Source: an uncultured Verrucomicrobiae bacterium
GTDB lineage: Bacteria > Verrucomicrobiota > Verrucomicrobiia > Limisphaerales > Palsa-1400
Assembly (NCBI GenBank): GCA_963764165.1
Contig: CAVXRD010000002.1
Location: 3,296,001 to 3,360,000, forward strand
DNA: 64,000 nucleotides
Direction of reading: 5' to 3'
Shown here: positions 22,028 through 27,867 of the stretch, piece after piece
How positions within the stretch are numbered: position 1 is the stretch's first letter
Layout: every line of letters starts with the position of its first letter
Position numbers and translations under genes: made by a program
Notes under the pieces: model-generated
Told to the model about the DNA's origin: nothing
The model's input: the letters and a program-made list of their open reading frames with translations, nothing else
Databases searched by the model: none

Positions 22028-22068
22028 GCCTCCGCCGTGGAGCAATCTGCGGCGGAGGCTTTTTGTTT
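22028..22068 (+). terminator. intrinsic terminator
   Basis: GCCTCCGCCGTGGA-GCAA-TCTGCGGCGGAGGC followed by TTTTTGTTT. Confidence 0.85.
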
Positions 22069-22073
22069 CAAAA

Positions 22074-22173
22074 GGTAGGGACGCCTCGCCGAGGCGTCCA
22101 GGGTGAGGCGCTCTATATGCGCAAGCCGTGGCACGAGTCCGCGCAACCGGACGGCTCGGCGAGGCCCCCTGCC
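22074..22173. repeat. GTAG-type REP doublet, family A
   Basis: GGTAGGGACGCCTCGCCGAGGCGTCC (22074-22099) with a degenerate inverted copy at 22149-22173. Confidence 0.8.
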
Positions 22174-24801: not shown

Positions 24802-25440
24802 TTAATTTGCGGTAATGGATTGGGCCAGCCGCATGGCGACGCCCTCGAGCCACAAATCCCGGTCACCGTCCGAGGCCAGATCATTTTGGCCCAGCACGGA
24901 CACGCCCGGCAGCATATCGGATTCGACGAGAAACAGGCGGTAATTATGGACGAATACAGCCACGCCCATTTTTGGCGCGGCCGGACGCAGGTAGATGAAG
25001 GTCAGCATTCCTTCGCGCACGTCAGAATGGTAATGGGGCTCGATCATATCGCCGTATTCGCGGTGCGCGAATTCAGTCAGCGCTTTTTCGCGGCCCTGGC
25101 TTTCCACCATTTGCATCATGGTGCTTGTCGGCAAAATCGGCTGGGAAGTAAAGCTGATCCGGCTGCCCCAATTGTCCGTGAAGGTGACCGTTTGGGGGCC
25201 ATCGCGCAACACTCGGCCGCCGACTTCCGGGCTTACCGGAACCGGCACGGAAAAGCCGCCTTCCGAGGAGGTGTAGGCAGATGCCTTGATGGAGCCGACA
25301 AGGTGAACTTTGGGGGTTTTTCGTGGCTTAGGAGGTGGCGGGTTCTTGTCCCCGCTGACACATCCGCTGGCCATCACGGCAAAACTGATCGACAACGCCA
25401 CACTGGCGAATTTGTTCGTCACAGACATCTTCGATTCCAT
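24802..25440 (-). CDS. putative lipoprotein
   Basis: Lipobox MASGC after a hydrophobic stretch; the longer ORF call (to 25785) runs through REP and ncRNA sequence. Confidence 0.65.
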   Translation of the reverse strand: MESKMSVTNKFASVALSISFAVMASGCVSGDKNPPPPKPRKTPKVHLVGSIKASAYTSSEGGFSVPVPVSPEVGGRVLRDGPQTVTFTDNWGSRISFTSQPILPTSTMMQMVESQGREKALTEFAHREYGDMIEPHYHSDVREGMLTFIYLRPAAPKMGVAVFVHNYRLFLVESDMLPGVSVLGQNDLASDGDRDLWLEGVAMRLAQSITAN

Positions 25441-25492
25441 GTGTAAAAAATGATAACTCCGGGAGCGCCCGAACCAAAAGCCCCATTTTTGA

Positions 25493-25573
25493 GGTAGGAA
25501 CGCCTCGCCGAGGCGCCCGGGTTGAGGCTTTATTTGCGCGTAGGACCGGACGCCTCGGCGAGGCGTCCCTACC
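25493..25573. repeat. REP doublet, family A
   Basis: GGTAGGAACGCCTCGCCGAGGCGCCC (25493-25518) and inverted GGACGCCTCGGCGAGGCGTCCCTACC (25548-25573). Confidence 0.85.
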
Positions 25574-25643
25574 TTTCTTAGTCCACGCCCCGATGCAGGC
25601 TTCAACACCGGAGGCCGCGAATGGTCGCGGAGGAATGAATGAT

Positions 25644-25686
25644 AAAAACAATAAGCCCCCACCCGGCCTTGCGGCCGAATGGGGGC
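25644..25686 (-). terminator. intrinsic terminator closing the candidate large ncRNA
   Basis: Minus strand GCCCCCATTCGGCC-GCAA-GGCCGGGTGGGGGC followed by TTATTGTTTTT. Confidence 0.8.
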
Positions 25687-26524
25687 AAATTGGGGGCTGG
25701 GAGTTCGCCAATCTCTCTTTCCCACGCTGACATTAGGCGCACCCAACTGGGGCTGCCAGCTTCCCGACGCCATTCTCCACGGCAAGCGGAGTTTTGCGGC
25801 CTCATAGCAGGGCCGTCCAGCGCCTTGCGGTCACTGAATTTATTGAGTGAGGCCTCTTGGCTCGCTTGGGCTGGCGTTTGCAGCGCCGACTTGCGAACCA
25901 GGTTAAGACACGTTTGCGATTTCGATTCCGCGTCTTAACCATTTTGCGCCGGGACGGCCACCGTTTTTGGCGGTGCGTTGGCCCGGTGCTACGGGTCTGA
26001 CCTCTTAACTCTCAGGTTGCTTCTTTTCACAAGCCAGCGGTGCTGTTTTTAACATCGCCGACGTTTCGGAAGGGTTTTTACATGCCTTGCCTGGGCCGTG
26101 TTTCCTTCCCGCTGCGCGCGCTCACTTTGTCCCGCCTTTCAGCGTCTTTCTTTGGGCCGGCCTTCGTTGGAAGACCGCCAGAGTCGCGCACATCGTGCTG
26201 ATCCACAGTAGCAACCGTCTACCCTCTGGGTAACTGCGATTCACTCAAGCCTGAAACCGTCTTGAGTTACTTGACTCGGCTCGATGCAGTTTCTTTATCT
26301 TGCATTTAACCGCTCAGTTCCTGCTTCGCGTCACTGACAGCGTGCGAGCGCTGCCAGAGGAACTGGTGAATCCTGCCTCCGGTCTCCGAACCTTGCGATC
26401 CAGACTTAGAGGGGTTGAGCCAACCAGCCTGGCCCAGCCTTTCCCCAGTCACCTGGGATTATCCTTGGAATGTTTGCAACTTTCTTTCGTCCGCCACTCC
26501 CACTCCAGCTCTTTCAATGAACTG
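25644..26524 (-). ncRNA. candidate large ornate structured RNA (~880 nt; GOLLD/ROOL-like or new class)
   Basis: No credible ORF; upstream extended -10, boxA-like leader, several GNRA-capped stems with minus-strand G-U pairs, A-rich linkers and a terminator. Confidence 0.7.
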
Positions 26525-26538
26525 TTAAGAGAATAGCA
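26511..26538 (-). promoter_or_regulatory. extended -10 promoter and boxA-like leader
   Basis: TGcTATTCT at 26538-26530; GTTCATTGAAAG at 26522-26511. Confidence 0.5.
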
Positions 26539-26564
26539 GATTTCTGTGGCCTGAACATCAATTC

Positions 26565-26706
26565 TTGTTCACCGAGTTATTCACTTTCGGGAAAAATTAT
26601 TCACCACCTCGCAATCGCGTAAAGCATTGCGCATAAATCATTTGAGACATGCGTGTGAATAGCATGTCAGGGTGGCCGAACGGGCAAGAAAGGGGACGGT
26701 GGATAA
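26565..26706. promoter_or_regulatory. cluster of five DnaA-box-like nonamers
   Basis: TTGTTCACC 26565, TTATTCACT 26577, TTATTCACC 26597 on plus; CTATTCACA 26662-26654 and TTATCCACC 26706-26698 on minus; 1-2 mismatches to TTWTNCACA. Confidence 0.5.
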
Positions 26707-27573: not shown

Positions 27574-27867
27574 ATGATTTCAAATGAACGTCCGTCGCAT
27601 TCGGGCGGATACCGGTCTTACAGCGCTGGTCCTCCCAAACCACCAGTCAACGAAGATACACTAAGGACAGAAAAAATTCAGATCGAACGAAAGACCTTTA
27701 TTTTTACGCTGAAGGAAAATCCGCGCGGTCGTTTTCTCCGCATCACGGAAGACGTCAATGGCCGCCGCGATAACGTCATCATCCCCTCCACGGGTTTGGA
27801 AGAGTTCCGCAAAGTTCTTGAAGAAATGGCGAAGACGTCCGCCGAAATGCCTCCCAAAAATCAGTAA
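27574..27867 (+). CDS. PUR-repeat (Pur-alpha/DUF3276-like) ssDNA/RNA-binding protein
   Basis: LRTEKIQIERKTFIFTLKENPRGRFLRITEDVNGRRDNVIIP..GLEEF is one PUR repeat. Confidence 0.85.
   Translation: MISNERPSHSGGYRSYSAGPPKPPVNEDTLRTEKIQIERKTFIFTLKENPRGRFLRITEDVNGRRDNVIIPSTGLEEFRKVLEEMAKTSAEMPPKNQ

Follow-up and report, generated by a model that had tools for sequence, protein, structure and literature searches.

A full-length MISL RNA gene in a Limisphaerales chromosome, with seven covarying non-nested pairings and DnaA-type boxes ahead of its promoter

Which RNA is encoded by the roughly 0.9 kb without a credible reading frame that lie within an otherwise gene-dense 64-kb window (the whole stretch of DNA analysed here) of an uncultured Verrucomicrobiae bacterium, and what might this RNA do? 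A preliminary description had proposed a stand-alone, large structured non-coding RNA of ~880 nt on the minus strand of the chromosome, and had seen in it either a divergent GOLLD-like RNA or a new class. When the whole window was scanned against Rfam 15, two matches were obtained, namely a tRNA and MISL (RF03079), the latter spanning the complete model with a score well above the gathering threshold of 274.6 bits (Table 1). We thus regard it as virtually certain that the locus is a MISL RNA gene, present as a single match in this genome. As the match is full-length and MISL is already catalogued in Rfam, the observation is confirmed while its novelty is lost: a large RNA of the proposed kind is indeed encoded there, with a conserved promoter and terminator, yet it is a typical MISL RNA and no discovery of a new class. 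MISL is typed in Rfam as Gene; sRNA, is said to stem from the survey by Weinberg and colleagues of 2017, and has a range that we take to be the Verrucomicrobiota. Nothing excludes membership of the locus: homologs occur throughout the order and class of the window, and the consensus stems of RF03079 are kept, with compensatory changes in 105 homologs. Two features go beyond the model, as the transcription unit reaches ~60 nt further in the 5' direction (two extra hairpins) and seven non-nested pairings are missing from the Rfam structure line. Of the other families that had been named for comparison (ROOL, OLE, HEARO, RNase P, tmRNA, group I/II introns), none was recovered; in particular, the seven matches at E<=10 on the locus included no GOLLD, ROOL, OLE, RNase P, tmRNA or intron model.

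Table 1. Features of the MISL locus, in window positions. Boxes, promoter and transcript ends are predicted. For PK1-PK7, values give the share of paired alignment cells, the number of within-clade shuffles reaching the observed value, and double-compensatory events in the tree reconstruction.
Feature	Start	End	Strand	Evidence
Distal DnaA-type box GGTGGATAA	26698	26706	+	box search
DnaA-type box GGTGAATAA	26597	26605	-	box search
Tandem DnaA-type boxes, directly upstream of the -35 region (predicted sites)	26565	26585	-	conserved in homologs
Extended -10 TGCTATTCT	26530	26538	-	TGnTAnnnT in 42/59 clade-A homologs at the same leader distance
Predicted MISL transcript, ~880 nt; putative +1 near A26523, 3' end in terminator U-tract	25645	26523	-	promoter, leader and terminator positions
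boxA-like leader with small 5' hairpin (GTTC/GAGC), loop TGAA in PK1; beyond Rfam model	26508	26522	-	conserved motif
Second 5' hairpin, sequence-variable; beyond Rfam model	26466	26507	-	covarying pairs 26507-26466, 26505-26468, 26504-26469, z 7-12
Rfam MISL match, RF03079 model 1-751/751	25700	26464	-	580.1 bits, E 1.5e-175
PK1: TGAA 26516-26513 / TTCA 26370-26367	26367	26516	-	99.5% of cells paired; 0/1000; 7 events
PK2: loop CTGGT 26427-26423 / ATCAG 26202-26198	26198	26427	-	98.9% paired; 0/1000; 8 events
PK3 (H-type): loop TCGC 26347-26344 / GCGA 26329-26326	26326	26347	-	95.0% paired; 0/1000; 3 events vs 8 breaks
PK4: GGTTGC 26216-26211 / GCAACC 26020-26015	26015	26216	-	97.6% paired; 0/1000; 21 events
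PK5: TTGTGA 26032-26027 / loop TCGCAA 25919-25914	25914	26032	-	97.5% paired; 0/1000; 17 events
PK6: loop TGCTA 25809-25805 / TGGCG 25772-25768	25768	25809	-	105/105 paired at all 5 positions; 0/1000; 3 events
PK7: CGCC 25739-25736 / loop GGCG 25709-25706	25706	25739	-	105/105 paired at all 4 positions; 0/1000; 2 events
Intrinsic terminator: 14-bp hairpin, GCAA loop, T-tract	25644	25686	-	terminator scan; covarying stem, z up to 17

The comparative work is based on an alignment of 105 full-length copies with a mean identity of 67% (~72 clusters at 90%), composed of 36 of the 38 loci from the genome search, two at contig ends being dropped, and of 69 loci among the at least 80 flanked ones that a pattern scan recovered in species genomes. 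Grouped by similarity, 62 homologs are window-like (clade A; titles include Limisphaerales and Pedosphaera), 34 are Opitutaceae-like (clade B), and nine are divergent (clade C). Conservation reaches at least 97% at 182 of 883 positions, a figure that is inflated since the pattern scan fixes 20 bases by construction in 69 of the 105 sequences, and that lies far above the 10 such positions quoted for ROOL in the accessible text of PMC5737381. Altogether 92 positions are invariant in the 105 sequences, with a dense invariant core in the 3' part, and for many of the conserved single-stranded residues no partner was found. Among the matches listed, record titles are nearly all Verrucomicrobiota; MISL copies filed under other titles (L086, an 858-bp scaffold labelled Stutzerimonas, as well as L061, L076, L077, and L088) are likely due to contamination, mis-binning, or loose names rather than to an extended range.

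Since the leader, the 5' hairpin, the -10 element, and a covarying terminator are all conserved, the transcription unit is predicted to run from about 26523 to 25645, that is, over roughly 880 nt; from the leader to past the terminator, the 105 homologs measure a median of 881 nt. The Rfam span would cut off PK1, and the full limits (26523-25645) matter for in vitro constructs. When the letters were rechecked, the stems of the preliminary description were all found on the minus strand (26457-26444, 26401-26388, 26365-26315, 26267-26243, 26144-26133, and 25940-25901), along with 12 GCAA motifs in 879 nt, and the covariation that it had put forward as a check is evident from compensatory changes in the nested stems of the 105 homologs. 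The extended -10 at 26538-26530 is likewise in place, conserved mainly in clade A, and the terminator at 25686-25644 was also called by a terminator scan (14 pairs) and has a strongly covarying stem. Folding is stronger than expected by chance on the minus strand (z -4.41, compared to -2.89 for the plus strand, each against 20 shuffles). The absence of credible protein-coding capacity was borne out as well: none of the ORFs overlapping MISL is kept among the 105 homologs. A hidden ORF was rejected on these grounds, and also because the most shared stop codon, an antisense one (79/105 homologs), closes open frames of 3-190 codons in differing registers. Directly downstream of the terminator lies a REP-like inverted repeat (25492-25575, core CGCCTCG[GC]CGAGGCG), which recurs at ~22063-22150; its core is found in 340 copies genome-wide, three of them in the window.

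In the alignment, seven non-nested pairings covary (PK1-PK7, Table 1). Each is paired in 95-100% of cells, and in no case did any of 1000 within-clade shuffles reach the observed value; the helices were picked with the data in view, and within-clade shuffling, with three coarse clades, leaves some relatedness in place. PK4 is entirely exchanged in the divergent clade C, and the loop that takes part in PK5 belongs to the 12-bp stem of the preliminary description. PK3, the weakest of the seven, as well as PK6 and PK7 rest on few events. An eighth candidate (GGCA 26091-26088 with TGCC 25784-25781) was dropped as unsupported, given that 409 of 1000 shuffles reach its value; the GGCA loop could moreover pair just as well with a second partner at 26377. 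Isolated high-scoring pairs that track the clade split were set aside as phylogenetic noise. The loop of the first hairpin is a GNRA tetraloop in 102/105 homologs. MISL, as read from these pairings, is more knotted than the catalogue model shows. As pseudoknots lie outside what a covariance model can display, PK1-PK7 may already figure in the drawing by the original authors.

The element at the very 5' end, GTTCATTGAAAG (26522-26511, minus strand), had been described as a boxA-like leader. This holds insofar as it resembles the boxA of rRNA leaders in this genome and in relatives, but it is incomplete, as the TGAA within it also pairs with 26370-26367 to form PK1. By eye, the rRNA operon leader of this genome consists of a -10 followed after 6 nt by GTTCTTTAGAAAG, an arrangement similar to that of MISL; boxA-like elements precede both 16S and 23S, the pre-16S one also pairing with the spacer, and in four of five relatives GCTCTTTGAAA or TCATTGAAAA is located ahead of 16S. 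Given these similar elements and the presence of an encoded NusB, a boxA role for the MISL leader appears plausible. In contrast to MISL, however, none of the rRNA leaders of the five relatives has DnaA-type boxes within 1 kb, and the MISL element differs from that of the rRNA leader in staying within the folded RNA as PK1. The leader motif GTTC[ACT]TTGA is exact in 101/105 homologs, and its TGAA changes jointly with the PK1 partner (TGAA/TTCA, TGAT/ATCA, TGAG/CTCA, TGAC/GTCA), which makes the leader part of the folded RNA. In the Opitutaceae-like homologs it reads TGAT and tracks the PK1 partner, not the rRNA boxA, so that structure by itself could account for it. The leader may serve as boxA and as PK1 strand in turn during transcription, or structure alone may explain it. 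The small hairpin GTTC/GAGC, paired in 98.6% of cells without a double change, is a stem without covariation support.

Upstream of the leader, a TAnnnT at a distance of 6-8 nt is present in 52/59 homologs of clade A, 2/34 of clade B, and 3/8 of clade C. Similarly, the tandem boxes occur in 45/59 homologs of clade A (44 occurrences at -63 to -61 from the leader), 7/34 of clade B, and 0/8 of clade C. Both the -10 and the tandem box are thus mostly clade-A features. The 26538 site is absent from the list of a generic promoter scan, and the support for it is its conservation. DnaA-type boxes were scored as 9-mers within one mismatch of what we take to be the DnaA box consensus. At least one of these is found within 200 nt upstream of 67/100 homologs compared to 2/100 in a control window (-600 to -400), and the cluster at MISL is the densest in the genome with four boxes in 300 bp. 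In this 7-Mb genome, the tandem form occurs eight times: three of these occurrences precede dnaA, mraZ, and MISL, two lie in other intergenic regions, and three are poor matches; dnaN has single boxes upstream, and a DnaA-type motif was present ahead of dnaA in six of six genomes examined. The MISL promoter hence shares with dnaA 9-mers that match the presumed consensus, as would a site of the DnaA regulon. DnaA is also known to control division genes in other bacteria. Most likely, the protein that binds these boxes is DnaA, with either sign of control conceivable, but it could be another regulator, for example, MraZ itself. Besides those of dnaA, mraZ, and MISL, the tandem DnaA-type boxes that precede genes at G000:C2:3499109 and C2:3472469 mark candidate regulon members.

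MISL was found in 44/61 relatives, in 88/150 genomes of the order, and in 9/150 of a phylum sample, nearly always with one match each; a search with a model of the 3' core for more distant homologs returned the same nine phylum genomes as the Rfam model. No match was obtained in three low-fragmentation relatives, each searched with 150 candidates scored: G228 (one contig, 96% complete), G232 (two contigs, 95%), and G004, which belongs to the same genus (10 contigs, 93%). Many other misses concern fragmented assemblies and prove nothing on absence. Considering these three genomes and the partial carriage within the order, MISL looks dispensable. In one genus the RNA appears to diverge fast (L246 and L247, from G263 and G046; also G312): promoter boxes, leader, and 5' domain are kept, while the middle and 3' parts of L246 and L247 drift, and G290 of the same genus scores normally. 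A second match to the 3' end of the model (76 nt, 40.4 bits) was detected in G007 (C1:3154355-3154430), apart from the full copy.

The genes next to MISL are specific to the clades, with an M23 peptidase, a PALP enzyme, and rho in clade A and a HrpB helicase and typA in clade B, and among 69 loci with flanks of up to 5 kb no conserved partner gene was found across clades. Single copy and clade-specific synteny fit vertical descent with loss and without a dedicated partner gene. In the window itself, the neighbours are DUF4149, a PurA-family gene, rsfS, a cytidylyltransferase-family gene, and cstA. The PurA-family gene (27574-27867, plus strand, Pfam E 2e-11), located 1 kb from the MISL promoter, encodes a small protein of a family that binds ssDNA/RNA; it is not among the shared neighbours of the homologs in the 69 flanked loci. 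Downstream of MISL, 24802-25440 (minus strand) is a gene of 212 aa whose product looks, by eye, like a lipoprotein at its N-terminus and has no Pfam match. A role as a replacement for a housekeeping RNA was rejected, since the genes for RNase P, 6S, SRP, and tmRNA are all present elsewhere in the genome.

Homologs of MISL are also found in RNA libraries. Twenty metatranscriptome runs, drawn from 13 studies on peat, soil, wetland, and mine drainage, contained 41-56% of the words that were sampled, and in four of four metatranscriptomes examined at the level of contigs, homologs were recovered with contigs that cover only bins 25636-26573 and a summed depth of 10^5-10^6 over the MISL body. Being unstranded contigs of community homologs, these data speak for presence in RNA libraries and not for strand, ends, or rank, and the zero depth of the flanks is no evidence of transcript ends, as the flanks are unconserved and these runs may lack the exact organism. 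The bacterial group that hosts MISL thus has homologs in peat, soil, and wetland transcriptomes.

As to function, no functional or structural study of MISL was found in the open literature. The name does not occur in the main text of PMC5737381 or in the accessible parts of PMC12286853, PMC12990946, and PMC13081860, and the accessible part of the Ribonanza report, the sole place where MISL was encountered, names it twice, as a chemical-mapping example. GOLLD (RF02032) and ROOL are, like MISL, large, pseudoknot-rich, and non-coding with no known function, a likeness in manner of working only. According to the accessible text of PMC12286853, loop pairings of GOLLD and ROOL that covariation had brought to light turned out to bridge separate molecules, and ROOL was non-essential in one strain. 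MISL differs from both in its single chromosomal copy outside any prophage or tRNA array, its conserved 5' half, its DnaA-type promoter, and the lack of a match to their models; cage formation is a feature of GOLLD and ROOL. A second point of comparison is the raiA motif RNA, for which the accessible parts of PMC12968392 describe an abundant, single-locus RNA that acts in trans and has growth-transition phenotypes, but no known biochemical function. It shares with MISL the single chromosomal locus and a pseudoknotted core, and differs in size (~200 vs 880 nt) and in occurring in other phyla; the locus has no match to the raiA model.

Our tentative proposal is that MISL could be a stable scaffold or self-assembling RNA that acts in trans, with a synthesis that depends on replication or growth state; this guarded assessment covers the functional steps jointly, that is, box-linked control together with scaffolding or self-assembly in trans. 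A sigma-70-type promoter would start the ~880-nt transcript at about 26523 and the intrinsic terminator would end it. A regulator of GTGAATAA-type boxes, most likely DnaA, would occupy the sites immediately ahead of the -35 region and might thereby tie MISL output, in either direction, to replication or growth state, as it would for dnaA, dnaN, and mraZ. The first 12 nt, an rRNA-type boxA, might recruit NusB/NusE for antitermination; once a further ~150 nt have been made, these bases would be captured into PK1, a pairing evident from covariation. The RNA presumably folds up into a compact particle of several domains, in which at least seven covarying non-nested pairings and GNRA loops keep the parts together. 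By analogy with GOLLD and ROOL, this seemingly dispensable, non-coding scaffold would act in trans, would probably self-assemble via some of its loop pairings, and might store or sequester a partner across growth transitions. The proposal starts from an apparently stand-alone non-coding unit with long-range pairings and with boxes common to dnaA, dnaN, and mraZ, which is found in RNA libraries and seems to have been lost from relatives; multimer, partner, and phenotype would be added by analogy. Against scaffolding and self-assembly speak that all seven pairings could be intramolecular, that there is no symmetric-loop signal (in the 105-homolog alignment, adjacent loop bases showed no convincing covariation indicative of symmetric kissing loops), and that sequence and model similarity to cage-forming RNAs is lacking. 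The high conservation would fit a catalytic or binding core equally well. In its boldest and, to our judgement, unlikely form, MISL would be a chromosomal, replication-initiator-controlled RNA-only nanocage or multimer that is unrelated in sequence to GOLLD and ROOL and whose rRNA-type boxA is switched off by a pseudoknot. If true, this would be a host-encoded and not phage-borne RNA compartment with a synthesis coupled to the cell cycle. Whatever its function, predicted transcript limits, seven mapped long-range pairings, promoter boxes common to dnaA, dnaN, and mraZ, and natural losses open to comparative genomics now provide handles, and MISL is an obvious next target for cryo-EM after GOLLD, ROOL, OLE, and raiA.

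It is also possible, if rather unlikely, that MISL is instead a monomeric regulatory RNP in the manner of the raiA motif RNA, OLE, or a protein sponge, which would bind a specific protein or complex and modulate the transition to stationary phase. The single chromosomal copy and the apparently stand-alone, vertically inherited gene recall the raiA motif RNA as described in the accessible parts of PMC12968392. The conserved single-stranded residues without a found partner and the missing symmetric-loop signal point in the same direction. On the other hand, OLE is associated with the conserved protein gene OapA, whereas MISL has no conserved neighbouring protein gene; furthermore, the MISL consensus revealed no protein-binding motif that recurs in the manner of CsrB, and the genome has its 6S gene.

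Less probable still is a catalytic role, with MISL as a ribozyme or as the active core of an RNP that has an unspecified substrate. The size of MISL, its at least seven pseudoknots, and the dense invariant 3' core would suit such a role, and large complex bacterial RNAs are often catalytic according to the accessible text of PMC5737381. However, none of the ribozyme models, those of RNase P and group I/II introns among them, matches at E<=10, the locus has no exon junction, ORF, or mobile context, and some close relatives appear to have lost the RNA.

That MISL is a selfish mobile element, or else a divergent form of GOLLD or an RNA of phage origin in an unusual setting, is very improbable and as a reading largely refuted, even though size and ornateness are similar and the distribution is patchy in the order and in the phylum sample. 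Identity with GOLLD was rejected: neither the locus nor 20 homolog fragments match the model, and the fragments gave no match to the other large-RNA and ribozyme families (ROOL etc.) at E<=10 either. The GOLLD-like reading of the preliminary description is thus not sustained. GOLLD was found in 0/150 genomes of the phylum sample by a search without positive control, and 22 stretches from viral contigs were sought as GOLLD loci, of which 20 were scanned and had no Rfam match; kinship was judged from models and not from real GOLLD sequences, which leaves room for a remote structural relationship. The setting typical of GOLLD, tRNA arrays or prophages, does not apply, as the nearest tRNA is 11 kb away, the neighbours are cellular, and no phage copy was found. 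A phage origin was rejected as well, given that blastn against phages yielded only 29-nt chance matches, and single copy and clade-specific synteny point to vertical descent. In IMG/VR, MISL has five matches on short contigs, of which the four that were read (L039, L040, L041, and L043) carry apparent RNA-virus genes (families assigned by eye). Since two of the IMG/VR contigs have one and the same viral ORF fused to MISL, but in opposite orientations, these four are probably assembly chimeras of RNA virus and MISL from metatranscriptomes. Such chimeras could mislead searches for phage-borne RNAs. Elsewhere in the genome (G000:C2:1559019-1561230, minus strand), nine closely spaced tRNA calls, among them a second tRNA-His and one with a stop anticodon, form what looks like the tRNA array of an island or prophage.

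That the locus is a replication origin or the cis-acting leader of a downstream gene is scarcely credible despite the densest box cluster of the genome and a dnaA 45 kb from MISL in G007, since the conserved terminator closes the RNA, downstream genes vary, and an origin was rejected in two complete relatives, where the GC-skew origin switch (20 sampled stretches each) lies more than 1 Mb from MISL (~3.8-4.0 Mb vs 2.45 Mb in G120; ~3.8-4.1 Mb vs 0.38 Mb in G211). In both of these complete genomes dnaA (G120:C1:2292810, G211:C1:1854483) is nearer to the terminus-type than to the origin-type skew switch, and in the genome of the window dnaA and dnaN are on separate contigs (G000); oriC seems to be uncoupled from dnaA in this group.
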